A stretch of 64,000 bases of DNA from Ostrea edulis (Eukaryota), in NCBI RefSeq assembly GCF_947568905.1, contig NC_079171.1, forward strand, positions 4,712,001 to 4,776,000, written 5' to 3'. The position numbers were made by a program, and so were the translations under genes. The notes beneath the pieces were generated by a model, which had not been told where the DNA came from, made no database searches, and worked only from the letters and a program-made list of their open reading frames with translations. Below are positions 1,652 through 57,700 of the stretch, in pieces (position 1 is the stretch's first letter; every line of letters begins with the position of its first letter).

Positions 1652-2617
1652 TTACAATTTGTCTTTAATTGCTTTCATAACTTTAGCATATTTTTTATCC
1701 TGAATTTTTGTGTACACTTCTGTATAAAAATTCAATTTACTTTTTATGTGGTTACATATTTCTTGAGGTTTTTCGTCTTTGTTATCTAATCTACAATACA
1801 TTTTATACTTGTATATTTTACAGGCAATAAGAGATATTATGCTATTCAAAAAGAATGTCTTTTCATTGTTTTCATAGTAAAATCCTATCACAATTGTTTT
1901 CCACGATATATCAAATTTTAAAATTTGTTTAACAATGTCCCATATATGAGAAACATTTTTACATTTTAAGATAAGATGTTCATTGTTTTCTTTAGCATCT
2001 CTGCAAAAGACACAAAAATCATTTTCTACTATCTTCCATTTCTTCAGCAATTCTCTGTTACACAATAGATTATTTAATAATTTATAATTAAATTCTGATA
2101 TACTTCTGTCTCTTATGGATAAGATTTTTTGTTCATAAATAGATTTCCAAGCCGTTTTTGTTATTTCAAAAACCTTTCCGTAATATGTTTGGTGTAATGG
2201 AGGTATAAATTTTTCATGACAAAGAATTTCGTAAATCAACTTTGAATTGATATCACACACTTTAACATGTCCTTTACATAATAAATCGTATGATGTACTC
2301 CCATGAAAAATGTTTTCGTATCGTATATTTGAATATTCATAACTTTTGAAGGTTTTTGTTATAACTGTTTTTATAATCATATATTCACACATCCAGTTTT
2401 TTTTACATATAAGTTTGTCATCAAACCATTCCAAAGGTTTTATGCCATTTTCATTTACAATATCATTCAAAAATTTAAAACCGCTCCTCAGCCAATTATG
2501 AAAAAATATTGGCTTGTTTTTGTACATAAAATTTTTATTACACCACAACGGTTCTTTCAATAATGCATTCAGATAAAATTGTTTTTTATTTTTTTTTACA
2601 TTCGTTGAAAAATACAA
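1652..2617 (-). CDS. LINE ORF2 C-terminal part (zf-RVT-like region, CxxC...EHLxxxC), separated from the main ORF2 by a frameshift
   Basis: FNYKLLNNLL...WKIVENDFCVFC...ENNEHLILKC...W is typical of the L1/Tx1 ORF2 C-terminus. The frame change falls in the A-run at about 2582-2597. Confidence 0.85.
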   Translation of the reverse strand: MYFSTNVKKNKKQFYLNALLKEPLWCNKNFMYKNKPIFFHNWLRSGFKFLNDIVNENGIKPLEWFDDKLICKKNWMCEYMIIKTVITKTFKSYEYSNIRYENIFHGSTSYDLLCKGHVKVCDINSKLIYEILCHEKFIPPLHQTYYGKVFEITKTAWKSIYEQKILSIRDRSISEFNYKLLNNLLCNRELLKKWKIVENDFCVFCRDAKENNEHLILKCKNVSHIWDIVKQILKFDISWKTIVIGFYYENNEKTFFLNSIISLIACKIYKYKMYCRLDNKDEKPQEICNHIKSKLNFYTEVYTKIQDKKYAKVMKAIKDKL

Positions 2618-5399: not shown

Positions 5400-5457
5400 G
5401 CGTATGACTGACTAGCGGTTTTTTTTTTTTTTTTTTGGTTTTTTTTGTTTGGTAGAC

Positions 5458-6684
5458 TTAACTCTGTTTTTTGCCCTGCTTGTTTCTTGTTGATCTAGAG
5501 GAATTGTTGGTAGCTGAATTTTCGTCCGTACGCTGCAATTTGGCTGCCATGCCGTCGAGGATACGTCCAAGCTTATTTTCACCTGGCCAATGTTGCATTA
5601 GAGTATGAGATGTTCCGGTCACGTTCAGCCCGCTACCCCAATAAGTATCCCATGTCGATTCCACCAGAATATCGGATTTTCTGATTTTTTTTAAAGCACT
5701 TCTGAATTGTGAACAATGCTGTAGTTTAGATTCCAGTATTTCCCGCATAACGGAGTCTTTAGATGTAATCCAAGCATCAGATTCCAGGACCTGACCTCCT
5801 ACACGTTTGGCATCTAAGGCGGTTTCAGCTTTACTTACGGCTTCTGCACGGTTAAGATCACCAGAACGTAAGGATTTGATGTGTTGGAAAGCATGTTCGG
5901 CTGAAGGATATGTTTGCCCAAAAACCTTTAACTCAGTAGGGAAGAAATTTGAAAGAGGGTTATCTTTTCCAGAGAAGCATACTATGTCCTCCTGGTGAGT
6001 GACATATGATCTGCATTTATCCGATCCCGGAAAGTGACTTGGTAGCTTGCATATTCTACAACTCTGCTCGAATTCGCAAGCATTTTTGTAATGGTCATCT
6101 GCCCAGCAGTTTGTGCACTGCTTCTTTCGTTCCCGTAGGGGTTGGCCTTTGTGAGATATGGTACAGCGTAAACCTGCACATGACGCAGAGCGTGGAAGGA
6201 ATTTTCCATTCTCTAGAGGCGACATATACACAAAACGATTTCCATTTAATATTTCAGTCATTCTGTGGGTTTTAGGATGTCTGATTTTTTCATATTTGAT
6301 ATCACTTGTTAATTCTACTCCTAGACCTAAGCCTTTGAGCATCTTTTTAATACATGAATCTTCAACCGATAGAGGTATACCTTTAATTAGGACTCGAACA
6401 ACTTTCTCATCAGGAGAGTCTGTACCCGCAGAGAATGGGTTCGTGTCATAAACCTGGATTGATCTGCTTCCAAGTGAGAATCCTTCAGTAACTAATTTCG
6501 ATCTACTCTCCGCAGACTTTATGTAGATCCTCCACAGATCTCTATCTCTTTGTACACATATCACATCCGAGACTGTTGCGCTCGCGGCTTCTGCAATGTC
6601 AAAGTCGGTGAAATATTTACTTTTTGTTGTTTGAATGTCTCTGTTCCGCATATAAACTGGCTTAAGAGTTTGTGTCCACTCCAT
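5458..6684 (-). CDS. LINE ORF1p: RRM-like region, two CCHC zinc knuckles, C-terminal NADAR (YbiA-like) domain
   Basis: Knuckles CTNCWADDHYKNAC and CRICKLPSHFPGSDKC. NADAR motifs PLSNFF, YPSAEHAFQHIK, VMREILESK, LVESTWDTYWGSG and GENKLGRIL at aa 234-384 (about 5533-5985). Confidence 0.88.
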   Translation of the reverse strand: MEWTQTLKPVYMRNRDIQTTKSKYFTDFDIAEAASATVSDVICVQRDRDLWRIYIKSAESRSKLVTEGFSLGSRSIQVYDTNPFSAGTDSPDEKVVRVLIKGIPLSVEDSCIKKMLKGLGLGVELTSDIKYEKIRHPKTHRMTEILNGNRFVYMSPLENGKFLPRSASCAGLRCTISHKGQPLRERKKQCTNCWADDHYKNACEFEQSCRICKLPSHFPGSDKCRSYVTHQEDIVCFSGKDNPLSNFFPTELKVFGQTYPSAEHAFQHIKSLRSGDLNRAEAVSKAETALDAKRVGGQVLESDAWITSKDSVMREILESKLQHCSQFRSALKKIRKSDILVESTWDTYWGSGLNVTGTSHTLMQHWPGENKLGRILDGMAAKLQRTDENSATNNSSRSTRNKQGKKQS

Positions 6685-6984: not shown

Positions 6985-7815
6985 GAATAAGCTGTTCAAG
7001 GTAGACAGGAGTCCTCTCTGGGTGAATGGTTTGTCTTCTAATTGGTTGTTGAAGGTAAAGGTGTCTGATCCCATGACAAACCAAGGCTCTGCTGTGTTGG
7101 TAAAGCATCTGATCCAATGCTGACTTGAGTCAAGCTTTTCTCCAAGTCCTGAGTGGGAAATGCATTCATAACTGCTACACTGTTAGATGCGATCTTGTGT
7201 AATCTAATGTTCCCTTGCTCCTTCAATACTTGCTGAGTTTCCTTCACCAGCTCGATAGCTTCATCTATGGTTGGAACAGAAACCAGTCCATCATCGACAT
7301 AGAAGTTCCTTTCAACGAAATCCCTAACATCTCTGTCACCGTTTTCTACTGCCTTACGTAATCCATACGTAGCTACAGCTGGTGATGGAGTATTGCCGAA
7401 CACATGCACTCGCATGCGGTAGTCTATCAGCTCATCCTCTGGGTTGTTGTTGCGATACCATAAGAATCGGAGGAAATCCCGGTGCTCTTCCTTTACATAA
7501 AATGAATAGAACATTTGTTCTATGTCAGCTATCACTGCAATCTGATCTCTACGGAAACGAAGCAAGACTCCGAGCAGACTATTTGTTAAGTTAGGACCGG
7601 TCAACAAGACACTGTTAAGCGATATTCCCTGGTACACCACTGACGAGTCAAAAACACCTCGAATCTTATCGGGCTTCTTAGGATGGTATACCCCGAAGAG
7701 TGGCAGGTACCAGCATTCCTTGCCTTCTGAAATTGGTGGTGCGACTTCTGCTGCTCCTTTATCTATAACACCCTTCATAAAGGTAACCATATGGTCTCGC
7801 TTAGTTGGATTTTAC
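6985..7815 (-). pseudogene. BEL/Pao LTR-retrotransposon RT fragment (part duplicated at 1-115)
   Basis: WYLPLFGVYHPKKPDKIRGVFD, ADIEQMF, HVFGNTPSP, FYVDDGL; continues after a frameshift as KPFTQRGLLSTLNSLF and is truncated there. Confidence 0.92.
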
Positions 7816-8721
7816 GGATACAGATAATGCATTTATCTTTAATCAAAGGCTTCCTTTCAGAGGAATAACAAGTTCAGTTTGCATTTCAGCTGGATTGGTC
7901 CATCGTTGACCTACTTTTTGAGAAAATAGGTCAAACTGTTTTCCCAGGCTTTTTTTTCATTATGGATACATATATTGCACTGATATATAGTCAAAGGCCT
8001 CCTCTAAGAGGAATACAACTTCAGTTTGCATTTCAACAGGATTGGTTCATCCTGACCTACTTTTGGACTAAAAATAGGTAAGTTTTTTGAGGGATTTTTT
8101 CATAACAGATACAGATAATGCCCCGATATTTAGTCAAAGGCTTCCTCTTGGAGGAAAACAAGTGCAGTTAACATTTCAGCTGGATTGTACCCTAGGGGTA
8201 AGAGTAGGTCCAACAGTTTTGCAGATTGTTTTGGTATGTTCTCAGATATTGCTCTGAAATTTAATCACAGCCCCCCTTTCAGAGAAATACATAATCAGTT
8301 CACATTTCAACTTAATTGGTGCACCATGACCTACTTTAGGGCTAAAAGTAGATCAAATGGTTTCCTGGACTTTTTATCATCATAAATAGATATTGCACCA
8401 ACATTTTGTCACAACCTCACTCTCAGTGAAAATTTAATGCACTGAAGGAAATACCTAGTAAATGACACTAGTCAGGCTAGTAGGTCGGTAAATTTGCCTA
8501 GTAATCAATCTCATTACTGAGATAGAAAGTAGGTTTACTGTCCGAAGTCTATCGGGGGCATCAAATTACGCTCGGTCAGCAGCAGTTCCCGCCATCCAGA
8601 ATATACCGCCTTCAAAGACAAAGAACTGATAAGAATTTGACCAGTTGCGTGACTTTCACCCACGGATGCAGACGTGTTGTTTTTGGTGAGTATTATTAGA
8701 ATTAGTTAATGAATCTGAGTT
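7701..8721 (+). repeat. Direct repeat copy 2 (appears identical to 1-1021)
   Basis: Direct comparison; the copies diverge after gaatctgagtt. Confidence 0.97.
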
Positions 8722-9531
8722 ATTTATAAATACTCTTAAAATTTGGTTCATAAAGAATATTTATTGGGGTTTAAGCGTTTAATTGATCCAAAAAGATAAT
8801 TATGTAGGTATATACAAAAGAAAGTAAATAATACACTACATGTAACAATTAAGTTTCTACATCTTGACCAGTGAATTTGGACAATCAACGCAAGGTATAG
8901 ATATAGATTTTCTTATTCCAGATATTACAAGATAATATGTGTGGTATGAGTATGATATGTTCGTGTCAATATGTTGTCATCATTTACTGATGCTGTGCGA
9001 AAGGTGAGGGAAAAGGGGGGGGGGGTCAAATCACTATCAGACAAAACCTCGTTCTGATAAAAACATGGCTGCGCCCATATAAATTCATTTAAGTGTATGA
9101 ATAGACGTATATGATATTGTTTATGTTTGTTGCTGGTTAAAAACGGAAACATGCACTTGTTTAGCTAATAAATTTATACAAAACATGATTTAAAAAAAGT
9201 TGCAAACAAAGAAATTAGTTTTTAATCTTTACACACACAAAAAAAAATATTAGGTTTTGATCTGTTAAAATAGGATATTATTTTCACGTAAATATTTTTT
9301 GTGAAGGGTATTGGTTAAAATGTTTATATGATGCTTTTTTACATTATATTTGAATTTGTAACAATATAGAAAAGTGCATGTTTGAATATGAATATGTGTC
9401 ATATTTATTTCAGATTCAAATATTCTTCATAAAAATGAAATAAATCTAACCAGTCATCACTCATCAAAACAATAGTTTCATAAATTTTTTCTTCAGAGTG
9501 AGTTATACAAGGGAACATTTCAGATATAAGA

Positions 9532-39064: not shown

Positions 39065-40570
39065 TACTCATGGACAAAAGAAACGTTACACATGAAAAAA
39101 TTATAGTAAAACAATATTTTTTCGTATAAATAAATAAAAACTTGTTTAACAACACTTCATGCTTTACTGATTACACTGGCAAACACAACAAATGTTAAAA
39201 CCTAGTCATGCGTGAATTTATCGTTGATACCCGTAAACATGGTTTCGTGGATATCGCATTGCACGTGCAAAGAAAATCATTTTCATTTTTATCAAATACT
39301 ACTCAAGGTGATTCAGGCAGTAAGAAAAACATCAAAATTTTCCAACATCTTCGCGTATTGCAATGCCCCGGCTCGACAGTTCCAGTCGCGAAAGAGCAAT
39401 TGGCATGTTGGAACTTGGAGCGTCGCAAGCCGACGTTGCACGGCGATTTGGGGTTGCAAGGATCACGATTTCTCGATTATTGCACCGTTTCAACACAACA
39501 AATTCAACAGCAGACCGCCCCCGATCTGGAAGACCTAGGGTAACAACGCCCAGGCAGGACCGCATGATACGATTACGTCATCTACGGAACAGAACGGAAA
39601 ATCCAGCAAACACTGCTGTTGGAATTCCTGGATTGCGGCGAATCAGTCGCCGAACAGTTCAACGACGTTTGTCGGCTGCAGGTCTACGTGCACGACGCCC
39701 ATACAAAGGACCTATGCTGACCCAAAGACACTGCCGAGAACGACTTCAATGGGCTCGACGTCACTTGAGATGGAGGCTTGCAGACTGGAATCACGTTCTG
39801 TTTAGTGATGAATCACGTTTCATGCTGCGCCGAGTGGATGGCAGAACACGCGTGTACCGTAGACGCGGTGAACGCTTCTCTGATGGATGTGTGCTACGCC
39901 ATGACCGCTTTGGAGGCGGAAGTGTAATGATGTGGGGCGGAATAAGTGGTAATCGACGAACAGATCTTGTACCGATCATTGGGACATTAAATGCACAACG
40001 ATACCGTAATGAAATCCTTGCACAACATGTCCGTCCCTTTATCGCTGCAAATGGCGGAATTTTCCAACAGGATAATGCGCGCCCCCACGTTGCAAGAGCC
40101 AACAGAGACTTTCTTGCCAACAATCACATCGACATCTTGCCATGGCCAGCACTTTCGCCCGATTTATCGCCAATCGAGCACCTCTGGGACCAATTAGACC
40201 GTCGAGTAAGACAACGCCGCAATCAACCGGAAACGCTTGAACAGCTTAGAACTGCTTTGCAGGAAGAATGGCAAAGAATCCCTCAGGTCTCCATCAATCG
40301 TCTCATTGCTTCTATGCGTCGTCGTTGTCAAGCTGTTATCGATAACATTGGTTCTTTCACTCGTTATTGACATTGTGAATTGAATATCCGAAGTTAACAC
40401 TTTCCGGCTTTGACTCCGTAATTTGTGTATGTTCAGATTCGGGAAACCTTAGATATTTGTTGTGTTTGAACATTCAAATTTTATTTTTTTATTCCCAAAT
40501 TATATTATATTTTCATGAAATAAAATTACAGTTATACATTTTGGTGTAACGTTTCTTTTGTCCATGAGTA
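39065..40570 (+). mobile_element. Full-length Tc1/mariner element (1506 bp) inserted in an intron
   Basis: Perfect 27-bp TIRs TACTCATGGACAAAAGAAACGTTACAC (39065-39091 and 40544-40570) with TA TSDs. Confidence 0.96.
39363..40370 (+). CDS. Tc1 DD34E transposase, intact (335 aa)
   Basis: Paired-like HTH; FSDESRF, QQDNARPH, and SPDLSPIE with 34 residues between the second D and the E. Confidence 0.97.
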   Translation: MPRLDSSSRERAIGMLELGASQADVARRFGVARITISRLLHRFNTTNSTADRPRSGRPRVTTPRQDRMIRLRHLRNRTENPANTAVGIPGLRRISRRTVQRRLSAAGLRARRPYKGPMLTQRHCRERLQWARRHLRWRLADWNHVLFSDESRFMLRRVDGRTRVYRRRGERFSDGCVLRHDRFGGGSVMMWGGISGNRRTDLVPIIGTLNAQRYRNEILAQHVRPFIAANGGIFQQDNARPHVARANRDFLANNHIDILPWPALSPDLSPIEHLWDQLDRRVRQRRNQPETLEQLRTALQEEWQRIPQVSINRLIASMRRRCQAVIDNIGSFTRY

Positions 40571-43154: not shown

Positions 43155-43944
43155 AGTAAGGAGATCGTGTTGATGGATCGATTACATCTGGATTTGTTTG
43201 AGCAAGAGAAATGTCTCCCTAATGGCGTGGATGTCCGTCTCAGATTCAATCGCGCTCGACCCCAGTTCTACATGATGACCGCTGCCAGGAGTAGTGGGAA
43301 AGTGGTCATTCAAAGTATGATCTTGTGGGTGAGGAAAGTCAAACCTGTGCCGAGTATCATTAATCTCATCAATCAGCAACTGAGTACTCAAACGGCGAAA
43401 TATCCATTGAGACGAGTGGAAGTGAAAACCTTCACCATTCCTAGTGGCACCCAATCTAAAATCACCGATCATCTGTTTCAAGGACAGATGCCTAAACTGA
43501 TCGTGTTGGGCTTTGTGGACAATGCGGCTTTTAATGGGGATAATACCAGAAACCCCTTTCATTTCCAAAATGAGAAAGTCAAGAAATTAGAAATCAGTAT
43601 CAATGGAGAAATGATGGAAACCCGACCTTTGGAACCTAATTTCACCGACGATCAATACCTGAGATCGTATTTGAGTCTGTACAAAGGCTTGGGAAAATTA
43701 GGCCAGGACTGGGCTCCGGACATTACCCTGGAAGAGTATAAAAACGGTTACACCCTCTGGTGTGTGGATTTCACGAAAGATCAAGAAGCCCAGACGGATA
43801 AATTTCATCTCATACAGACTGGGAACTTGAGTGGAAGTGCAATTTGCCGCCAACGTGGCCAGGACCTTAAACTGTGTGGTGTATGCCGTGTTCGACAATC
43901 TGCTAGAAATCAACAAACAACGAGAAGTCAGTATCGATTACTAA
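43155..43944 (+). pseudogene. Maverick major capsid protein (double jelly-roll), N-terminally truncated and frameshifted near 43830
   Basis: [43 protein letters not shown]; the shifted frame ends [17 protein letters not shown]. Confidence 0.88.
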
Positions 43945-43953
43945 GAGAGAGAG

Positions 43954-44451
43954 ATGGATACTCAGCAATTGAGAGATGTTTTACAACGAGATTTAGGACC
44001 GGCGTTTGCAGGTGTGTATCCTCGAGATGTCATACCTGAGCTGTTACCTCATCACAAAGCCATCGTGGTGAATACAGACCCTCACGATCGCCCTGGAGCG
44101 CATTGGGTCTGTTTGTATTTGAGTAGCCCTACCGTCGAATATTTTGATTCTTACGGATTACCTCCCAGCCATAAAGACATCCAACACTTTATTCAACGCC
44201 ACGGAGAGACTTGGATTCATAACACCCATTGTTATCAAGATTTGAATACGGATGTCTGTGGACAATACTGTGTGTATTTTTTACATCAACGCCATCGACA
44301 TAGAAGCACCGTACAAGAATGGTTACTTCCCTGGAAAGGCACGGCCTTACAACGCGATCGTTTTGTGGCTGATTGGTTTAAAGAGACCTTCCGAAAACCG
44401 AGAACCCATCAAGGACAAACTTGTCAATGTCAAAGACTGAATGTATTGTAA
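43954..44451 (+). CDS. Adenain-like (C5) cysteine maturation protease
   Basis: IVVNTD....[12 protein letters not shown] and YQ....VCGQYC (His/Asp/Gln/Cys catalytic set). Confidence 0.92.
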
Positions 44452-44957: not shown

Positions 44958-45144
44958 ATCTACTTCTCTGGTTCCTTAAAAAATCGGAATGCCAGATTTT
45001 TGACGTTGCGCTCGTTTAAAAAGGTGAGAGCGCGGACGTCCTTGAAAACATCCCCTACCTCAGTCAAAGATGGCGGACGTCATGTTGATGACTCATCAAA
45101 AAAACACTATATAAATAGGTCACTTGTTACCATTTTTCTCAATC

Positions 45145-45546
45145 ATGTCGTTTGAACGGTACGCGAATGATGAGAAAGATGTACTAGTGTGTGGGTATTG
45201 CCGAGGACATTGGAGAACTTGTGGCTGTTTTCATTATAAAAAAGAAAACATCCTGGCCAAACACAAGTGGATAGAGAGTTTGGCAGAGCTGAATTATTAT
45301 CCCTTTGTCTATAAATGTTGTAGTCACACTAGAGAACCCTGGCTAAAGTGTAAGTGTCCGCAGCATTGTACCATCACCCCTGAAGAAGAAATAGCGCATA
45401 AGGACTGTACCTGTGAGATCTGTCAGGAGTTTAGAGAGCGCTGGACTCGGAGAAAGTTTTATCCCCACCTGTTTCAACATTGTCCTTACAGTCAAGAACC
45501 CTGGTCAACGTGTACCTGTGAGACCTGTCAACCAGCATGTCGGTGA
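45145..45546 (+). CDS. Cys/His-rich small protein (putative zinc-binding)
   Basis: ATG at 45145 below the TATA box (about 45109); repeated CxC/CxxC clusters; stop overlaps the macrodomain start. Confidence 0.55.
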   Translation: MSFERYANDEKDVLVCGYCRGHWRTCGCFHYKKENILAKHKWIESLAELNYYPFVYKCCSHTREPWLKCKCPQHCTITPEEEIAHKDCTCEICQEFRERWTRRKFYPHLFQHCPYSQEPWSTCTCETCQPACR

Positions 45547-46034
45547 CGGATCTACGAGGAGATGTATTATCTCTACCTTGGGTGGATGCTATTGTACAAC
45601 AATGTAACTGTTTAACAGTGAAACCTCATGGATTAAGTCAACGTATTGCCGACCGATTTCCTTGGGCTAATCTGTATGCGACCCGACAACCTTTAGGACG
45701 GAGAAATTTAGCTATAGAAGCGGATCGAGGAATACCGGGTACTGTGTGTATTATGCCTCATTCTACTCATCCTGATGTGATCTGTTTGTTAGCGCAATGG
45801 GATTACGGGAGAGGCACTCAACGGTTACCCCTGTATGCCGATACCCCCGAACAACGTGAACTTTGGTTTCAACAATGTTTACAGAAATTAGACACTTTGT
45901 CTTACCAGACTTTAGCGTTTCCTTATCGTATTGGATGTGGATTAGCCGGAGGCAATTGGACTCATTATAGACAATGGATTTGTGACTTTGCTTATCAGTA
46001 TCATAAACATGTTTACATTGTCAAGAAAATGTAA
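45537..46034 (+). CDS. Macrodomain protein (TARG1/DarG/phage-like branch)
   Basis: GDVL, AIVQQCNC, GLSQRIADRFP and LAFPYRIGCGLAGGNW. Confidence 0.85.
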   Translation: MSVTDLRGDVLSLPWVDAIVQQCNCLTVKPHGLSQRIADRFPWANLYATRQPLGRRNLAIEADRGIPGTVCIMPHSTHPDVICLLAQWDYGRGTQRLPLYADTPEQRELWFQQCLQKLDTLSYQTLAFPYRIGCGLAGGNWTHYRQWICDFAYQYHKHVYIVKKM

Positions 46035-46255: not shown

Positions 46256-47050
46256 TCAATGCCTGGTTCCGGTAAACCGGCATAACGGGCACCGTCCCCG
46301 GGTGTGTCGCCGCTCCTCTAACTGTTCCACGCACGAGCAGCAAGCTGGGCGCTGCCCACATCCCCTACACGTGATACCGGAGTGTACCCTGTCTTGCCAG
46401 CAGACAGGGCACTTAAACCAGATAGGAACCGCCCTATCTGCCCAGCCAGGGACAGTCATAGGGTGGTTCCTCGGGGGATGACTTGCCACCGGTGCGTGGG
46501 TTGGTCTCGGTGGCGGAGTCCTCCCTGCAAACCGGATGGTAGGTGGTGGGGGTCTTGCAGGGGCTGCTGGTCTCGGTGGTGATGGTGATGACGTGTCTGA
46601 CACCAACAGCGACGGACTCTGGGCTGGGCTGGGAGGTGGTGCGGGGGACGGTGACCTCGGTGAGTACTCCACCGGTGACGCTGGTGAGTCGCTCATCGGC
46701 ACCGGGCTGTATTCCACTGGTGCCGATGGGATCGCTGGTGGTGGTGTTGTAGGCGTCGCCGGGGAGTAAGGTGGTGGTGGTGAGGGTGGCTGTGGGGCCC
46801 GTCGGCGCGGTCTCGTAGCCGTGGACATCCGAGCGGTGCGGCGGCGTCCCCTCCCTTCATACTCTGCCCGCACCCGGCAGATGATCTCACGGGCCCCACT
46901 CTGGTCGAAAGGGGAGAAGGTGCTCAGGTCGTTCTCAGAACGCACGACCCAATTCTCCCCTACCCGTTCCTCAGCCACCACTAAGAGCCGGTACCGAAAG
47001 CCAGGCAGGGTCTGAAAGTTGTAAATAGGCTCTCTTCTTCCTTCAGCCAT
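46256..47050 (-). CDS. Pro/Ser-rich protein with a C-terminal C4C4 RING-like finger (putative E3 ligase)
   Basis: CPVC-x10-CRGC-x5-CCSC-x13-CPLC; homolog at 55115-55786. Confidence 0.75.
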   Translation of the reverse strand: MAEGRREPIYNFQTLPGFRYRLLVVAEERVGENWVVRSENDLSTFSPFDQSGAREIICRVRAEYEGRGRRRTARMSTATRPRRRAPQPPSPPPPYSPATPTTPPPAIPSAPVEYSPVPMSDSPASPVEYSPRSPSPAPPPSPAQSPSLLVSDTSSPSPPRPAAPARPPPPTIRFAGRTPPPRPTHAPVASHPPRNHPMTVPGWADRAVPIWFKCPVCWQDRVHSGITCRGCGQRPACCSCVEQLEERRHTRGRCPLCRFTGTRH

Positions 47051-47602
47051 TCTTCTTTCTTCTATCTTCTTTAAAATAATGAAAAGCTGTGCTGGATCAC
47101 CAGTGAAGCGAACTGGCGAGCGCGCCGGTATATATCAGGAAAGCGCGGACCTCCTCGAAAACATCCCTCGCTTCGGAGACGAAGCCAAGATGGTGGCCGT
47201 CAAAATGGCGGATTTGTGCTTTCGAGTAGAGAGTTTTTTCTCATTGTCTTTTTCTAGACATTCGATATCTGTGCATGGTAGATTTAATCTGATAGATTCT
47301 GGGGCGCGGAATTCGTTAAACTTATTTTTATTTTGCTACGTCGCATAGTTTTCAAAGAAACAGAGGTTAAAGAGGTCGAGTCGAGGTTCAATGTTTCTTC
47401 ACCACCTCTTTAAAAATTTATTTCTCGACCATGTACATCCCTAAAAACATCTCATAAGGTCTATTCGATAGAAAACACCTTATTTGATTCGATTTTCACT
47501 CTACCTTTAGGATTTTCTGGATTCCTCAACAAATAAACCCTTCTCTGAGAGAGTCAACCAAACACAGCTTTCGTGTAAACAATTTTATTCATGTCACATA
47601 TT

Positions 47603-47959
47603 TCAAATACATAACTCCCACACACAACACCAATTCACATGTATTTTTAAAATAGGGTCCAACATTTTTTCCATTTCTCGAATCCTGCGTTGAAATCGAT
47701 ATCGATCAGCGGCTACAGTCATCCAGATACTTGTCCGGTCTTCTTCGGGTAACAGATACACTTCATTATGATCCAGATTAAAAGTTACACATTTTCTTGT
47801 ATTTTGTTGTACATGTGATGAAGATACCGCCCTCGAAGGGTGTCGATCACGCCACTGATGTGCGGCTTTGTTCTCTTTAATTCCTCGGCTACTAAATGAA
47901 TCAACACTAATGCCTCGGTGTTGATACGGTTCTCGATCAAATGTCTGCATATCCACCAA
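47603..47959 (-). CDS. PPP1R15/GADD34/ICP34.5-like PP1-eIF2alpha adaptor
   Basis: RVxF-type KCVTF followed by RTSIWMTVAADRYRFQRRI...LDPIL. Confidence 0.85.
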   Translation of the reverse strand: MVDMQTFDREPYQHRGISVDSFSSRGIKENKAAHQWRDRHPSRAVSSSHVQQNTRKCVTFNLDHNEVYLLPEEDRTSIWMTVAADRYRFQRRIREMEKMLDPILKIHVNWCCVWELCI

Positions 47960-48123
47960 TATTCGTCTAAAGTTATTGGAAATAATACCGCACGAAGATA
48001 GGATTTCAATTTTTGAAAATCTGGCAAGTTTTCTATTTCCTCAATACACTGTAGGACAAATGTTTTTTCGATGTTATCCCTAGCAGTCATGATTTCATAA
48101 ATGAAATGAATTAAGTTCTTCAC
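47785..48123 (-). CDS. Bcl-2-like helical paralog 4
   Basis: Shares the FP.TLDEY..I...L.EN....LVLI....EELKR..P pattern with its neighbours. Confidence 0.55.
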   Translation of the reverse strand: MKNLIHFIYEIMTARDNIEKTFVLQCIEEIENLPDFQKLKSYLRAVLFPITLDEYWWICRHLIENRINTEALVLIHLVAEELKRTKPHISGVIDTLRGRYLHHMYNKIQENV

Positions 48124-48487
48124 ACTTTATGTATACTTCTCGAAGCCAGTCCTTGGTGATACTTTCAATCTCGGCGGTTTTTTCAGGCATGCGTTTCTTG
48201 AATTCCTCCCCCACAACATAAATTAACATCAATCCCGCATCGTTATAGAGATTGATGTACACCCGGTTCCGTAGATCTGTATATTGGTCCAGAGTCAATG
48301 GAAACACTCCCCCTATCAGAAAATTTTTAGCGAATTGAAACACCGTATCGTCTTGCATTTTCTCGACCCATTCTAATGCATGGTTATGCGCTTTTTCTGC
48401 GATGTTGTCACTTTCAGCCATGGTTTGTAAATGACTAAAATGAATACAAGTATCCGCTTTTTCTACGATGTGGTCACTGCTGGCCAT
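48095..48487 (-). CDS. Bcl-2-like helical paralog 3 (likely ATG about 48421)
   Basis: FPLTLDQY...GLMLIYVVGEEFKKRMPEKTAEIESITKDWL. Confidence 0.55.
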   Translation of the reverse strand: MASSDHIVEKADTCIHFSHLQTMAESDNIAEKAHNHALEWVEKMQDDTVFQFAKNFLIGGVFPLTLDQYTDLRNRVYINLYNDAGLMLIYVVGEEFKKRMPEKTAEIESITKDWLREVYIKCEELNSFHL

Positions 48488-48969
48488 CCTCCAGGAATAA
48501 AGGAAAAGAAAAACGGTGAGGTTTTTTTATACACCTTTTCCAGCCAGTGATCGGTAATCGCTACAATCGCCCCAGTCTTCTCAGGTTCCCTTCGTCTAAA
48601 TTCTTGCTCCATGGTATAAATCATGATCAATCCAGACTCTCTGTTCAGGTTGTCGGCTATATGCTTGCAAACGCCGGAATATTCATATAAGGTCATAGGA
48701 AATTCCCAAAAGATCAACAACTTCATGGCGAATTTATATCTCAACGGCTGTTTTTCTTTCCAGTCCTTGATACACTGTAATGCAGCGCTACGAGCGTTGT
48801 TCACCGATTCTTTGTAGTCCTTGAAATACTGTAATACAGCGGTAAGAACATTGTTGTCCCATTCAGCCATGATGATCAAATGAAAAAAAATTCCAAAACG
48901 TTCTTGTTTTATAACAGGGCAGCCATTCCTTTCATACGAATCAGTTCCACGAATCCTTTTTGTAAACAA
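48463..48969 (-). CDS. Bcl-2-like helical paralog 2 (likely ATG about 48870)
   Basis: FPMTLYEY...GLIMIYTMEQEFRRREPEKTGAIVAITDHWL. Confidence 0.55.
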   Translation of the reverse strand: MFTKRIRGTDSYERNGCPVIKQERFGIFFHLIIMAEWDNNVLTAVLQYFKDYKESVNNARSAALQCIKDWKEKQPLRYKFAMKLLIFWEFPMTLYEYSGVCKHIADNLNRESGLIMIYTMEQEFRRREPEKTGAIVAITDHWLEKVYKKTSPFFFSFIPGGWPAVTTS

Positions 48970-49268
48970 TCGCGTAAGATCCGATCAATGTCACTCATCT
49001 GGTCTGGAAGGTTCTGTTTCAATTCCTCAGCATACAAATAAATCATGAGTAAACGTCCCGTATTGGTATTCTCCGCTAATGAATCAGCAATCCGTTGAAA
49101 ACTATGTACATTTCTGACCTCCGGTGACATCTGTTGTACAAATTGACGAGCATTTTGAATGAGAGGGTCATGTAAGGCCACGTTCATACATTGTAGTACA
49201 TAGCTATATCCATTCATTCTCGTAGTAGCACTGCCGCCCATAGTGAATAACGAACGTTCAGAAAACAC
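48909..49268 (-). CDS. Bcl-2-like helical paralog 1 with the clearest BH1-like motif
   Basis: FQRIADSLAENTNTGRLLMIYLY resembles BH1 (F..V..ELF.DG.NWGRIV.FF). Confidence 0.6.
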   Translation of the reverse strand: MFSERSLFTMGGSATTRMNGYSYVLQCMNVALHDPLIQNARQFVQQMSPEVRNVHSFQRIADSLAENTNTGRLLMIYLYAEELKQNLPDQMSDIDRILRDCLQKGFVELIRMKGMAALL

Positions 49269-49378
49269 CTGTATTTATAGGTAAAGGTTATGCATCACGT
49301 GATCAAGCACCTGCACCGCGTGATCAAGCACCTGTACGTCAGCTGGTTTCTACAGTCATTCTTGTCTGACCTTCAGTC

Positions 49379-49639
49379 ATGGATACACGGAGAGTTTTAA
49401 GAGCGAGACGCCGCCGCCAGGGAATACAACAAGTGGAGAATTTAACCATAGTAGAAGATTATGTAGACGAGATGGAGATCTGGGACAATTTAGTACAGAG
49501 ATGTCGCCATCGATTACGCTGGGGCCGATCTAAAAATTGGTGTTTTGACTATGTATTGCGGTCACATGAAACAGTGGAGGATATTTGGCTGCGTTTAAGT
49601 GACATGTACCTGAAAAATTCCCCCTCATACAGTACATGA
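49379..49639 (+). CDS. Hypothetical small protein
   Basis: ATG start; coupled to the next ORF by an ATGA overlap. Confidence 0.5.
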   Translation: MDTRRVLRARRRRQGIQQVENLTIVEDYVDEMEIWDNLVQRCRHRLRWGRSKNWCFDYVLRSHETVEDIWLRLSDMYLKNSPSYST

Positions 49640-49884
49640 TTTACCAGTTTTACACGTTATTGAACGGCACTCAAAAAGTATCGGGATTTATTCGACTGGA
49701 GAAACCACGTCACCGGAGAAGTGTATGGGTATTGTTTTGGGATGCAGACTGGATGTGGGAAACCGTCGAAGAGATACGTTTCCCCGGGAGAAGAGCTCGA
49801 CAATTAGTACAGCACATTATATCCGAAGATCATGACTTACACGTGTATATAGAAGAACCTGCGTATGAAGCCGGCCATTTTTAA
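49636..49884 (+). CDS. Hypothetical small protein
   Basis: ATGA overlap; followed by AATAAA and a degenerate histone-like stem-loop (49904-49919). Confidence 0.5.
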   Translation: MIYQFYTLLNGTQKVSGFIRLEKPRHRRSVWVLFWDADWMWETVEEIRFPGRRARQLVQHIISEDHDLHVYIEEPAYEAGHF

Positions 49885-50193: not shown

Positions 50194-51093
50194 ATGGCTC
50201 AGAAACAAGTAGAATTTGTGGACAAAGCTCAGAAGAAAATAGATCAGCTGGTACAGAAGCAGATGGGACCACAGAAAGACTACATTGAACTGAAGAAAGC
50301 TAAGAGTGACGATCAGAAGACTGAACTGGGGAAGACCTCGAACTTCTTGCTCAAGTCTCCAGACTACATTGCTCGACAAGAGAAGATGCCCCAGACCTCG
50401 AACCAGACCACGAGCTTCAATCTCACGCCTTCAGACTACATTGCTCGACAAGAGAAGATGGCCCAGACCTCGGATTACCTCCCTAGCCAGAATCCGACAG
50501 ACCCGGGATTAGGCTTCTATTTTCCCGATTCACAGGACGCTACGGGACTGGAACTGGGCCTCTACAACGCTCAGAATGACCCTCCGACCATGAACAAAGA
50601 AGACTTTGCGATCATTACCACGACACTAGACGGGATCGTTAACCGCATTAATGTGCTGAGTAATGAGATTGGAAATCATACCACAGTCCTACTGAAGAAG
50701 CTGGAAGAGCTGACTTCTAAAAAACCTAGGAAGGAATACACTCCAGATTACGCTGCTAACCCGTGCTACACGTGTGGAGAAACAGGACATTGGTCGCCGG
50801 ATTGCCCACAGAAAACAGATTATCCGCAGACCAGTAAGAAATCGAGGTCAGCAGATTCTCAACAGACCAGCAAGAAAACCAAACAAAAGGATCCTTGCTA
50901 CAAATGCGGAAAAATAGGACACTGGATTAGTGAGTGTCCAGAAGAACAACTGGAGATAGATGCGATGATTGGGCCCGTACCTGGCTCAAAACCCCCTGTG
51001 AAGAGAGAATACAAACCGTTAGAGATGTGGAATCCGCCCGCACCTACTGAAGAACCGCCAAAAAAGAAGAAGAAGAAACTCAGCAGAAAGTAA
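50194..51093 (+). CDS. Coiled-coil protein with two CCHC zinc knuckles and a C-terminal poly-Lys NLS
   Basis: CYTCGETGHWSPDC and CYKCGKIGHWISEC; duplicated DYIARQEKM; TATAAAA at about 50135 and AATAAA at about 51184. Confidence 0.75.
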   Translation: MAQKQVEFVDKAQKKIDQLVQKQMGPQKDYIELKKAKSDDQKTELGKTSNFLLKSPDYIARQEKMPQTSNQTTSFNLTPSDYIARQEKMAQTSDYLPSQNPTDPGLGFYFPDSQDATGLELGLYNAQNDPPTMNKEDFAIITTTLDGIVNRINVLSNEIGNHTTVLLKKLEELTSKKPRKEYTPDYAANPCYTCGETGHWSPDCPQKTDYPQTSKKSRSADSQQTSKKTKQKDPCYKCGKIGHWISECPEEQLEIDAMIGPVPGSKPPVKREYKPLEMWNPPAPTEEPPKKKKKKLSRK

Positions 51094-51419: not shown

Positions 51420-51541
51420 AGATATTGAACCACTCATCGACCCCCGACACCGCTTGACCAATCAAAAGCCGCCCTTGCTTGACCTCATTTGCATAAAAAG
51501 TGCACTCAGTTGAACTCCCTATCGGGAGGGCTTATACTACT
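51420..51541 (-). promoter_or_regulatory. Maverick terminal repeat / putative replication origin
   Basis: AGTAGT terminus; hairpin ctccc-tatc-gggag; octamer ATTTGCAT at 51487-51494; CCAAT at about 51459. Confidence 0.65.
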
Positions 51542-52271
51542 CCCGTTTCTTTTTATCTTACAATTTACATGACTAAAGCGTTAAACTTATTGTATGTGCT
51601 TCTGAAACAAAAGTATTAAAGTTCAGTGTGTTCATGCTCCCTGGTCCCTCTACATACAATGCACATGCAAGATGTACACTAAATGTAGTATTATCTGCCT
51701 AAAGCAGGGGTGTCATTGGATGCCATCCAACTCTTTGTTGCCAGGATTAGAACATTTTCTTTATCTAAGGTACAGATGTACATGATACTGAATAATGAAG
51801 TGTACATGTCAATACCATTGTACCTATATATAACAATTGCCAAGAAGAAAATAAAATTATTGATTTATATTTTATAACGACAATGAGGATACATGAGCAG
51901 ATCCAGCACAATAGCTTTATTAAGAATTATTTAGGGAGAGGGCTAAAATAGACTGTTTGCTGCCTGATCCCATTCACTGATTTCTGAATAAAATATTGTT
52001 TAAATAAAAATAATAAGCTACATAACCAAATAAAGAGATTATGCTGGACCTGATAAGGGAATAATTATAGTACACACAATGATACAGAATGTGTTGTGAA
52101 AGTCATCACAGGGTGTGATGTCATTTTAGTGCATACAATCAGATGAAAAACCGCACACCGTCACTTTGAACAAAGGCAAGCTTCTGAATTAATGATAAAG
52201 GATGTGTTTGAGAAATGAACTAGTTGGTTGGGTGGTTTTATTCTAATTTGGTCCAAACATCTTCTACTTAC

Positions 52272-52765
52272 CATTTCTCTATAATATGGCATTCATCAAC
52301 AACAACGGCTACCACTCTTGAGGAAAATTGCTCATCCGACAGTAGTTCGTGTCCCGTTTTTGTATTAAAGAGGGCCTCTGGATGACACATAACAATTGAA
52401 AAGTCCCCTTTCTTCACTCTTTCCACATCGACGTCACACTCTGCTACTAAATCTTCATCTGTAGTGTCTTCCACCTTGGACGCAATATCAAGTCTACAGG
52501 CACTGATTCCATGAATTTTCAATATATGAATTTGATCCTTTTGAATAATATTCAATGGTGAAATTGTCAAACAAACGGGAGTCTCCTTGCCTTCACCAAG
52601 AACTTGTGGAAGTAGGTGATATATTAGGCTTTTGCCGTAACCGACAGGCAAACTTACCAACAGATCGCCTTTCTTGTCGCGTAAATACTCGAAAGCTTGT
52701 CTCTGACAGTCTCTCAACACGATGTTCTTGTCGTAATCTTTCACGATTGAATCTAATGTTGACAT
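52272..52765 (-). pseudogene. RecQ-type SF2 helicase first exon (AcademH-like); downstream exons missing
   Basis: LRDCQ, LPVGYGKSL (motif I), ISPL, HPEAL and VVVDECH (DExH); GT donor at 52271. Confidence 0.85.
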
Positions 52766-53215
52766 TTTGTCGGATGAATAAATAAACCAAATAACACAGA
52801 CTAGGAAAATGTTTCGCAAACATATAGTTCCTATAAATATAGCGTTTTAAAAATGTTTGTCGCCTAAAATAAAACCATATTTATGTCAGAAATAAAAATA
52901 TATTACAAAAGTATTAATATAAAATCTTCGATGCAAAATCTAGGCTATATTGACATATTACAGAAATCTTGTAAAACCTGAGACGTTTACAGAGATTGTG
53001 AGCACTGTAAGGATCGACAACTCTGTATGAGAGATTGAGATCGTTAGCCAAAGACACAAATCCAGGGCGACTAATCATGATTTATCTGTATGCCGAGGAG
53101 CTCAAGAAAATCATCCCCAATCAAACCCGCGACATTGCGATCATTCTACAAGAAAGTTTACAAGAGGGGTTCATGGAGATGATGCGTTTTAACTAGTTTT
53201 CTTCATTAACAAATC

Positions 53216-53542
53216 ATGGGTGAAAGTGAAAACATCTCAGAAAAAGCGCATAAGCATGCATTAAAATGCATCGAGAAAATGCAAGACGATGGGGTGTTTC
53301 AAGCTGTTAAAAATTATCTGATATCGGGAGTGTTTCCAATTACCCTAGACGAATATATAGATCTACGGAACCATGGGTACAAGGACCTCTATAACGATGC
53401 AGGATTGATGTTAATTCAAATCGTGGGGGAGGAATTCAAGAAACGCATTCCAGAAAAAACCACCGAGATTGAAAGTATCACAAGCGACTGGCTTCGAGAA
53501 GTGTACATAAAGTGTAAAGAACTTAAATCATTTCATTTATGA
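53216..53542 (+). CDS. Bcl-2-like paralog 3, copy 2
   Basis: Strong similarity to 48095..48487. Confidence 0.6.
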   Translation: MGESENISEKAHKHALKCIEKMQDDGVFQAVKNYLISGVFPITLDEYIDLRNHGYKDLYNDAGLMLIQIVGEEFKKRIPEKTTEIESITSDWLREVYIKCKELKSFHL

Positions 53543-53853
53543 AATCATGGCTGAGAGGGACAACACAGAAAAAAATATTCGTCGGCAAGTGTATTGAGGA
53601 GGTTGAAAACTTACCAGGATTTCAATTTGTGAAATCCTATCTTCGTTCGGAAATATTTCCAATCACTTTAGACGAATATTCATGGATATGCAACCATCTA
53701 ATCGAGAACCCTATCGGCACCTCGGCCTTGGTTTTGATTCATTTAATAGCCGAGGAATTAAAGAGAACGATGCCAGACCAAACACCCCAGATCGAGACCC
53801 TCCGAGCGCAGTATCTTCACGACATGTACATCAAAATACGAGAAAATGCGTAA
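53539..53853 (+). CDS. Bcl-2-like paralog 4, copy 2
   Basis: Strong similarity to 47785..48123; ATGA overlap with the previous ORF. Confidence 0.6.
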   Translation: MKSWLRGTTQKKIFVGKCIEEVENLPGFQFVKSYLRSEIFPITLDEYSWICNHLIENPIGTSALVLIHLIAEELKRTMPDQTPQIETLRAQYLHDMYIKIRENA

Positions 53854-54014
53854 CCTTTAATCTGGACAACAATGAAGTGTATCTGTTACCCGAAGAAGAT
53901 CGAAAAAGTATCTGGATGACTGTAGCCGCCGATCAATATCGATTCCAAAGAAGAATTCAGAGTGTGGAGAACATTTTAAAACCTATCTTAGAAAAACTTT
54001 TTATTTCTTTATAA
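53682..54014 (+). CDS. PPP1R15/ICP34.5-like adaptor, copy 2
   Basis: RKCVTF and RKSIWMTVAADQYRFQRRI. Confidence 0.82.
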   Translation: MDMQPSNREPYRHLGLGFDSFNSRGIKENDARPNTPDRDPPSAVSSRHVHQNTRKCVTFNLDNNEVYLLPEEDRKSIWMTVAADQYRFQRRIQSVENILKPILEKLFISL

Positions 54015-55114
54015 GTGACATGAATAAAACATTGTTGTATGTGGCGTGAATAAAAATGTTTAAAATACATGGATTGTGTTTGTCGACTCTCTCAGAGGAA
54101 GGGTTTATTTTATTACTCAGGAGAAAAATCCTAAAAGTGGATTGACAATCAGTTAGAATAAGACGTTTTCTACTGTATTACAGGTTATTTTACTGTATTA
54201 CAGGTTATTGGACATTTTTATAGTTGTGCATGTCCGAGAAATAAATACTTTAAAGGGACTGGTTCACGAAAGAAATGTTTTTCGATTTTGATGTTAAAAA
54301 TTAAAAATATACTTCATTTAATATTGACAACCAAAATTTGGACCGTCTGAATGCAAGGATAAGAGCAATATTTTAGCTTTGATTCTCTGTTAGGTAAACA
54401 AAGACTCGAGTCTTTTTATGTAAACAAACAGATCAGTGAAACGTTAATTTTGTAATTCAAAGTATGTTCATTTTGTACAATCACAAATTTTAACTTTTAA
54501 ATGACACATTTTACCTTAAGTATACTTGAGATGTGGTATATTCAATATCCATTTATTTTGAAAACCCCGTAAACAATAACACACCCCAATCTTTGTTTTC
54601 AAAACAAATAATAAACTCTCTATAATGAGCTTATGTCATGAGGAATAACCTTAATTTTTTTGTGAATCCTTCTAAACATATTAGACTGTAGATTTTGATC
54701 ATTTAAAGTGAAAAAGAAAATTTGAAGAAAAATCGTGAATCAGTCCCTTTAAGTGTCTGTGTTAGTGGATTTCACCTCGACTCGTGCTCTTTGATCTCTC
54801 TTTCATTGAAGACTATGCCCCGTAGCAAAATAAAACTAAGCTTAACGAATTCAGCGTCTCAGAATCTATCAAATAAAACCCTCAATTCAGAGAAATCGAA
54901 TGTGTAGAAAAAGAAAATGCGAAAAAACTCTCTTCACGAAAGCACAAATTAGCCATATTGACGGCAGCCATCTTGGCTTCGTCTCCGAAGCGAGGGATGT
55001 TTTCGAGGTCTGCGCTCTCTCGTTATATACCGACGCTCTCGCCAGTTCGCTTCACTGGTGATCCAGGAACTACAAGATTTATTTTGAGAAGATTCGAAGA
55101 ATTGAAGAACAACA

Positions 55115-56184: not shown

Positions 56185-57700
56185 AGGAAGAGGTGTTTGC
56201 TGTAAGGGAATTCAGAAAAGGGGACTTTCTCCTTGAGTACAAGGGAAAGCTGTGCCGTAGTGACCCTGGCTACGGCACATACATGTTCCGAGTTCCAACT
56301 GAATGGGAAAGATTATTGGTATGTTTTGATTGTTACATTATGCTCAAGAGCCATAAAGACCGTCATGAGGAACAAAGACCAACTGGTATGCATATTTTTG
56401 TTTGGTATTTGCATAAACCGTAGCGAGGATTTTCTTTCATATGATTAATATCATATTGTTTTTGGCATTAGATGATAGAAGACAACCCAGCAGAAGAACG
56501 GGGTCCCCTTATCGAGGAGATAGATGAGGAGATAGATGAGGAGATAGACGAGGAGGAAGAGAATGTAATATGCATTTATTGATAGTTTCCCCCCAGTTCT
56601 GTGCATGTTACATTTCATCAGGGATGATTTTATACACAGTTCTGTGCATGTTACATTTCATCAGGGATGATTTTATACACAGTTCTGTGCATGTTACATT
56701 TCATCAGGGATGATTTTATACACAGTTCTGTGCATGTTACATTTCATCAGGGATGATTTTATACACAGTTCTGTGCATGTTACATTTCATCAGGGATGAT
56801 TTTATACACAGTTATGTGCATGTTACATTTCATCAGGGATGATTTTATACACAGTTATGTGCATGTTACATTTCATCAGGGATGATTTTATACACAGTTA
56901 TGTGCATGTTACATTTCATCAGGGATGATTTTATACACAGTTATGTGCATGTTACATTTCATCAGGGATGATTTTATACACAGTTATGTGTATGTTACAT
57001 TTCATCAGGGATGATTTTATACACAGTTATGTGCATGTTACATTTCATCAGGGATGATTTTATACACAGTTATGTGCATGTTACATTTCATCAGGGATGA
57101 TTTTATACACAGTTATGTGCATGTTACATTTCATCAGGGATGATTTTATACACAGTTATGTGCATGTTACATTTCATCAGGGATGATTTTATACACAGTT
57201 ATGTGCATGTTACATTTCATCAGGGATGATTTTATACACAGTTTTATTACATTTTCCAGCCGTCAATTTCAACATGCCAAACACCAAGCCATGGAAGACG
57301 GACGTTTACCGAGGGAGAGGGTGGCGTCATCGAAGCATTCTGCCAGTAAGGAATTTAGCATACATGTTGAAATAAAACTTGTCTTCAATGAATATGTCTA
57401 GTGTGCTGAGATTAACGCAACATCAATTTTTGTAGACGACTGCAGTCATAACACATCACAAGGTGGTGGACCGACTGTCCAGGACGGAGGAGGGGAGGGC
57501 CATAATCCACCGTTTGGAAGTGGCAGATCCAAGCGATTGGAGGAAGAGGCTAGCAGATCGGGTGAGGACTGCAAGGAGAAGGAGAAAGTAAGTGATAATG
57601 AAAATATTTGAAAATAATTGATTGATTTATTGCATTTAAAACAAATTTGTTATTTACTTTTCAGGTGAAGACCCGACTGCTAGTGGCTCTGTGGAGTGTT
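56185..57700 (+). pseudogene. Spliced gene remnant beginning with a SET-domain-like fragment
   Basis: VFAVREFRKGDFLLEYKG resembles the SET N-terminus; short acidic exons follow; no NHS motif found. Confidence 0.35.
56594..57243 (+). repeat. 43-bp minisatellite, about 15 copies
   Basis: cagtt(c/a)tgtgcatgttacatttcatcagggatgattttataca; early copies have c and later copies have a. Confidence 0.98.

Follow-up and report, generated by a model that had tools for sequence, protein, structure and literature searches.

We describe a cluster of five small genes, A to E, in a 64,000-nucleotide (nt) stretch of Ostrea edulis DNA (NC_079171.1, positions 4,712,001 to 4,776,000; hereafter the window, in whose own numbering all coordinates are given). 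The cluster lies on the minus strand of a virus-like element remnant, and on balance we favour the interpretation that it is a Maverick/Polinton counter-defence cassette, in which trimmed Bcl-2 scaffolds (A to D) stand beside a PP1 recruiter (E). A to D are paralogues that likely descend from Bcl-2, and E carries the motifs of GADD34-type regulators of PP1; all activities that we assign to the five proteins are inferred only. Lengths are in amino acids (aa).

48909..49241, minus strand: gene A, 110 aa, minimal Bcl-2-like, the only paralogue with a BH1-like NxGR
48463..48870, minus strand: gene B, 135 aa, sister to C, without counterpart in a second element of the window
48095..48421, minus strand: gene C, 108 aa, or 130 aa (48095-48487) from an in-frame upstream ATG at 48487
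47785..48090, minus strand: gene D, 101 aa; its final 55 codons double, in the -1 frame, as coding sequence for the E N-terminus
47603..47950, minus strand: gene E, a GADD34/ICP34.5/DP71L-like PP1 regulatory protein, absent from the original prediction

The four-gene array and its relatives

The original prediction had proposed a tandem array of four diverged Bcl-2-like open reading frames (ORFs), and the ORF list indeed contains four tandem minus-strand ORFs of 110, 135, 130 or 108, and 101 aa. They are paralogous: all six pairs scored above every one of 1000 shuffles (Smith-Waterman scores 52-161, against shuffle maxima of 42-53), and a profile-profile alignment of A-type with B/C/D-type copies gave a probability of 97.9% (E-value 3e-13). 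The pattern said to be common to the four (FPxTLxEY...GLxLI...EExKR...WL) did not hold up, since FPxTLxxY is found in three of them (B, C and D), GLx[LM]I and WL in two each, and EExK in three, this last being the only element carried by A, which lacks FPxTL, GLxLI and WL. In a tree of 32 rows, from which fragments and near-duplicates were left out, B and C form a clade (support 97/95). The array would be an accessory cassette expanded in tandem from one Bcl-2-family gene.

The overlapping stops and starts attributed to the array are mostly not real, as gaps of 38 nt and 4 nt separate A from B and C from D. The sole overlap among the four, 25 nt between B and C, requires both the upstream ATG of C, inside a 28-base-pair (bp) duplicate of the C start, and an extended B; it exists because this copy of B goes on for 18 residues after the point at which its relatives P0002 and P0003 stop (117 aa; P0004 has the same end point), into that duplicate. 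The idea that A to D are built around such overlaps was rejected. The largest true overlap is the 166 nt shared by D and E.

The A-D family is small and unannotated. Homologue searches returned 12 proteins from 1250 candidates, 26 representatives among 1.84 billion and, in the wider search with alignment A2, 21 proteins from 584 candidates. The relatives in the 12- and 21-protein sets are "hypothetical" or nameless, lie on short contigs and have no Pfam label, and with none of the 21 labelled there is no sequence bridge to canonical Bcl-2.

Relationship to Bcl-2

The predicted structures are confident models with five helices. When that of C was searched against known folds, Bcl-2-fold chains took the top five places, 20 of the 25 best and 23 of the 50 matches listed, covering 87-107 of its 108 residues, whereas most unrelated matches listed cover 59-95 residues; F1L, M11L, DPV022 and A49 are among the matches listed. 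For A, 33 of the 37 Foldseek matches listed are Bcl-2-family entries, and viral Bcl-2s, with the Bcl2 of a lancelet adintovirus at rank 12, are among the BFVD matches listed. No Foldseek or profile match was significant, and Z in the fold searches was low.

At the sequence level, A scored 16.2 bits with the Pfam Bcl-2 model (PF00452), below its gathering threshold of 31.4, and B, C and D had no match; at E-values up to 1 the model matched three of 30 family members, all A-type. Both NTGRLLMI and LIRMKG, which the original prediction had placed at BH1 and BH2, are found in A. NxGR, without Trp, occurs in A and in nine of ten A-type rows but in none of 20 B/C/D-type rows; at the BH1 position of the A-type alignment N is invariant and G and R stand in 10 of 11 rows, and the motif sits at the start of the central helix. 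For comparison, BH1 is an NWGR-type motif in the available text of PMC11209288, and the accessible part of PMC7022251 defines the family as a helical bundle of up to eight helices around a central hydrophobic helix 5, adding that BH motifs may be missing from viral members.

The BH2 motif is Trp/Gly-rich. We found none in A, which has no Trp and whose C-terminal tail is unconserved across 11 A-type rows. Nor is there a C-terminal transmembrane anchor, which many family members have: the highest 19-residue hydropathy is 0.58-1.27 in the seven copies of the window, and C-terminal windows reach at most 1.01 across the 32 rows. A phmmer search with A and profile searches with alignments A2, A4 and A5 gave nothing significant against PDB sequences, NCBIfam (A to D) and PHROGs (A and C) gave nothing relevant, and the ESM Atlas gave no usable match for A or C. 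Death-fold entries (CARD, DED, PYD) were absent from the fold-search matches listed, which does not exclude one. A homodimer prediction for C scored 0.02 against a mark of 0.32, with the alignment not used. The interpretation offered in the original prediction is partly supported.

Two alternatives bear on these data. First, all four proteins, even A, could be Bcl-2-derived scaffolds that do not bind BH3 helices and act as non-apoptotic immunomodulators. They have only five helices, no BH2 motif and no anchor, and vaccinia A49 has a Bcl-2 fold and binds neither Bax nor Bak (PMC4358236, as far as its accessible text goes), so that the fold is no guarantee of BH3 binding; this weighs against the decoy role that we propose for A below. 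However, it is the A-type copies that still carry N, G and R at BH1, with strong purifying selection acting on them, and we consider this alternative unlikely. Second, the domain could be an unrelated five-helix bundle whose Bcl-2 likeness is convergent or a chance of helical packing. The lack of significant Foldseek or profile matches, the low Z and the lack of a usable ESM Atlas match would fit, but three partly independent signals (the Pfam hidden Markov model, the Foldseek ranking and the exhaustive VIA ranking) agree on the family, Bcl-2 chains cover nearly the whole C model, which most unrelated ones do not, and NxGR falls where the central helix starts. We regard it as somewhat less probable still than the first.

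Gene E, a putative PP1 recruiter overprinted on D

By profile and motif matches, we could show that E belongs to the PPP1R15/ICP34.5/DP71L family. E and its copy in the second element, E', score 31.4 and 36.4 bits with Pfam PP1c_bdg (PF10488), both above the cut-off of 26.1, and in the PDB E matches PPP1R15B (E-value 3.5e-5) and DP71L (5.9e-4). Both copies have an RVxF-type PP1 motif, KCVTF, that aligns to the motif of PPP1R15B, and of the ten defined positions of the eIF2alpha-binding consensus, taken as printed in the available text of PMC5346070, E has nine and E' eight. When E itself was used as the query, the homologue search found no candidates.

The overlap of E with D is in the -1 frame, which is open through the last 55 codons of D in both copies, compared with 7-9 stops there in A, B, C and C' (P ~0.02). 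In D this frame is open for ~84 codons (P ~0.003 from the stop rate of the paralogues), and the stop of D coincides with the RVxF-type motif of E. In one relative, P0017 (148 aa), a D-type domain is fused in frame to a PP1 motif; its eIF2alpha motif, which agrees at 5 of 10 positions, is degenerate. We rejected a programmed -1 frameshift from D into E, since neither D nor D' contains a strict slippery heptamer. Each of the two copies of E starts with an AUG of its own. The D-type domain could serve to target the PP1 recruiter, with D and E working as a single unit (fused by frameshifting, or encoded in one frame in certain lineages) and the array providing variant adaptors. This would fit the P0017 fusion, the position of the D stop, the long open frame and the lack of constraint on the overlapping N-terminus of E (dN/dS 1.02), but we find it improbable given the missing heptamer, the separate AUGs and the fact that P0017 is one sequence with a degenerate eIF2alpha motif.

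Second element, copy number and selection

A second, inverted remnant carries part of the same array.

53011..54014, plus strand: A' 53011-53196 (5'-truncated), C' 53216-53542, D' ~53547-53853 and E' 53682/53688-54014, with no B

It lies in 53.0-56.0 kb and is 79.9% identical to the first over 979 nt, with 19 nt between A' and C' and a D' broken near its start. A second element with only three array copies had been predicted correctly: these are A', C' and D'. Given the sister relationship of B and C, a local duplication or deletion added or removed B, in a copy-number comparison that comprises two elements. Among the relatives, P0032 has two domain stretches within a single ORF, and P0039 starts like P0020 and ends like P0016; both would fit tandem turnover and both may be broken copies. 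P0024 keeps the order C, then D/E, in a third, broken copy. The second element is interrupted at ~54249-54752 by a ~500-bp AT-rich insertion with short inverted ends, resembling a miniature inverted-repeat transposable element.

Comparing the two copies, we found pS 0.84 and pN 0.21 for A over 51 codons, dN/dS 0.57 for D (p 0.04), and dN/dS 0.92 for C, indistinguishable from neutral at a pS of only 0.14. For E, dN/dS was 0.23 in the C-terminal 52 codons (p 4e-4), and the D-overlapping N-terminus was unconstrained. By these values, constraint is clear for A and E, modest for D and not demonstrable for C, each estimate being from a single pair and blurred by post-insertion decay. The sixfold spread of pS suggests that the two elements are mosaics.

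Expression signals

Candidate signals lie around and within the cluster.

49273..49279, minus strand: TATA-like box, 38 nt upstream of A
48913, 48531 and 48133, minus strand: TATA-like boxes placed 43-44 nt ahead of the ATGs of B, C (the upstream one) and D; each falls within the 3' end of the gene before it or right at that end
47584..47589, minus strand: candidate poly(A) signal common to the cluster, the first AATAAA after E

TATAAA occurs four times against 1.4 expected, three of the four at these positions; the D box is TACATAA. The C and D boxes are written into last-helix codons of the preceding paralogue and the B box spans the A stop, a placement by which each duplicated unit would carry the next promoter along. 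Upstream within the cluster no AATAAA is seen (weak evidence, P 0.19), and in neither copy is there an AUG between the D and E starts (also weak, P 0.06).

Proposed functions

The cassette interpretation would work as follows. A Bcl-2-family gene may have been trimmed to a soluble five-helix core of ~100 aa and then expanded in tandem. A, which kept the BH1-like NxGR, would most likely stay in the cytosol and capture host BH3 helices as a decoy, so that apoptosis or autophagy is delayed; B, C and D, which lost the motif, would most likely be scaffolds for binding other defence proteins, by analogy with several poxviral Bcl-2-fold proteins. E would recruit host PP1, so that eIF2alpha is dephosphorylated and translational shut-off prevented. 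Each of A to D probably has its own TATA promoter, all with one common poly(A) site, and translation of E may start at the second AUG of the message that encodes D.

More tentatively, a Maverick may have taken a Bcl-2 fold reduced to its working minimum (five helices, lacking an anchor and one of the N-terminal helices) and expanded it in tandem into specialised adaptors, with one lineage coupling the scaffold to a PP1/eIF2alpha recruiter by overprint or fusion. The resulting ~2-kb cassette would block both the death of invertebrate cells and the shut-off of their translation. If true, animal Mavericks carry the counter-defence toolkit of large DNA viruses, Bcl-2 mimics plus an ICP34.5/DP71L-type phosphatase recruiter, in less than 2 kb, which supports the idea that Mavericks replicate as genuine viruses and have to overcome apoptosis and the eIF2alpha-dependent shut-off. 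The array would also offer a naturally reduced Bcl-2 core, whose neighbouring paralogues with and without the motif could be used to ask which helices are needed for the fold and how it comes to be put to new uses.

The element and its surroundings

The remnant spans ~43.1 kb to 51.54 kb and contains a probable capsid fragment, a protease, a macrodomain-like ORF, a RING-like ORF, the A-E cluster, a zinc-knuckle ORF and an ACTACT end.

43155..43829, plus strand: probable major-capsid gene fragment, 5' part missing, broken near the 3' end
43954..44451, plus strand: adenovirus-type protease (Pfam Peptidase_C5, 21.3 bits, at the cut-off), of the kind by which Mavericks/Polintons are recognised
51536..51541, plus strand: (ACT)2 end-motif, surviving terminus of the element

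Mavericks/Polintons typically encode a double jelly-roll major capsid protein. The capsid fragment, which we take to be such from its resemblance and its position beside the protease, had no match in Pfam, NCBIfam, PHROGs or PDB. The termini were judged by the (AGT)2//(ACT)2 end-motif, terminal inverted repeats and a 6-bp target duplication. No partner repeat for the ACTACT at 51536 was found elsewhere in the window, and the other terminus appears to be lost. In the ORF lists, no ORF near the remnant could be recognised as a protein-primed polymerase, an integrase or a packaging ATPase, the element being truncated. The octamer ATTTGCAT lies at 51487, ~50 nt interior to the terminal ACTACT (51487-51541), and presumably recalls the Oct-1 site of adenovirus origins. 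The ACTACT end is the same as the motif described for Mavericks, (AGT)2//(ACT)2 in the available text of PMC8097293. We treat the remnant as a putative truncated, decaying, endogenous Maverick/Polinton.

Among its other genes, the macrodomain-like ORF (45537-46034, plus strand) has weak PDB matches (E-values 0.012-0.21) and matches PHROG 335 (4e-10). The RING-like ORF (46256-47050, minus strand; 264 aa), possibly a ubiquitin ligase, is proline-rich with a C-terminal RING-like finger (Pfam E-value 0.019, below the cut-off) and is broken in the second element. Together with A to E, these two would form a larger counter-defence region. Upstream of the RING-like ORF, a non-coding block (47092-47387, and 54774-55066 in the second element) is 85% identical between the elements, above the adjoining genes, and is probably a promoter; AA(A/G)ATGGCGG-type motifs, which we take to be YY1-like, occur in it at 47202 and 54965, with another at 45067. 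The remnant also contains a Cys-rich ORF of 133 aa (45145-45546, plus strand; no Pfam or NCBIfam match), two short ORFs of 86 and 82 aa (49379-49884, plus strand; no Pfam match) and, adjoining the terminus, a 299-aa ORF (50194-51093, plus strand) with two CCHC zinc knuckles, a ~24-residue internal repeat and a basic C-terminal tail.

Judged by the appearance of its ORF lists, the window is repeat-rich, animal-like DNA, with ORFs that we take to be retroelement- and transposase-like. Copies of 1025 bp, 99.9% identical (1-1025 and 7701-8725), flank an element resembling a long interspersed nuclear element (1652-6684, minus strand) with long ORFs of 408, 937 and 291 aa, and an intact-looking ORF of 335 aa (39363-40370, plus strand) is presumably a Tc1/mariner-like transposase. 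A DEAD/RecQ-like helicase fragment (52268-52765, minus strand; Pfam DEAD, E-value 2e-11) lies between the two Maverick remnants, and a tandem repeat of an 86-bp unit, with copies 98-99% identical, occupies 56594-57243.

Comparison with known systems

Our literature search, in which subscription journals were thinly covered, found no paper that describes a minimal Bcl-2 family arrayed in tandem or a PP1 recruiter in a Maverick. In the portions available, a 2024 review of viral Bcl-2 proteins (PMC11209288) uses neither the word polinton nor adintovirus, Bcl-2-like motifs come up in PMC6431247 for planarian retrotransposons only, and the readable supplement text of PMC8502044 has no GADD34, ICP34.5 or PP1 label.

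The closest parallels are threefold. First, in the accessible text of PMC8502044, Starrett et al. describe adintoviruses that carry Bcl2 and IAP homologues, with Bcl2 labels on three maps in the text of Fig. S2; there, too, a Bcl-2 homologue is an accessory gene of an animal Maverick. The lancelet adintovirus Bcl2 (BFVD A0A5H3CWZ2) has 197 aa and matches A weakly (E-value 1.5, TMq 0.50), whereas the array proteins are of ~100 aa, in tandem, mostly motif-less and linked to a PP1 recruiter. Second, in poxviral Bcl-2-fold immunomodulators (F1, M11, N1, A49 and others) one Bcl-2 gene was likewise duplicated and diverged in a DNA virus, and some copies lost BH3 binding (PMC4358236, accessible text). 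No sequence-level link to them was found for the array, and the poxviral chains listed have 129-143 residues as solved, compared with 100-110 aa and five predicted helices here, where the genes follow one another head to tail and the integrating element is small. Third, GADD34/PPP1R15A-B, ICP34.5 of herpes simplex virus and DP71L of African swine fever virus have, like E, an RVxF-type motif followed by an eIF2alpha-binding-type motif (PF10488). E differs from them in being Maverick-encoded and overprinted on a Bcl-2-like gene, in having Ser in place of the consensus Gly/Asn/Leu and, in one relative, in the fusion of its PP1 motif to a helical domain.
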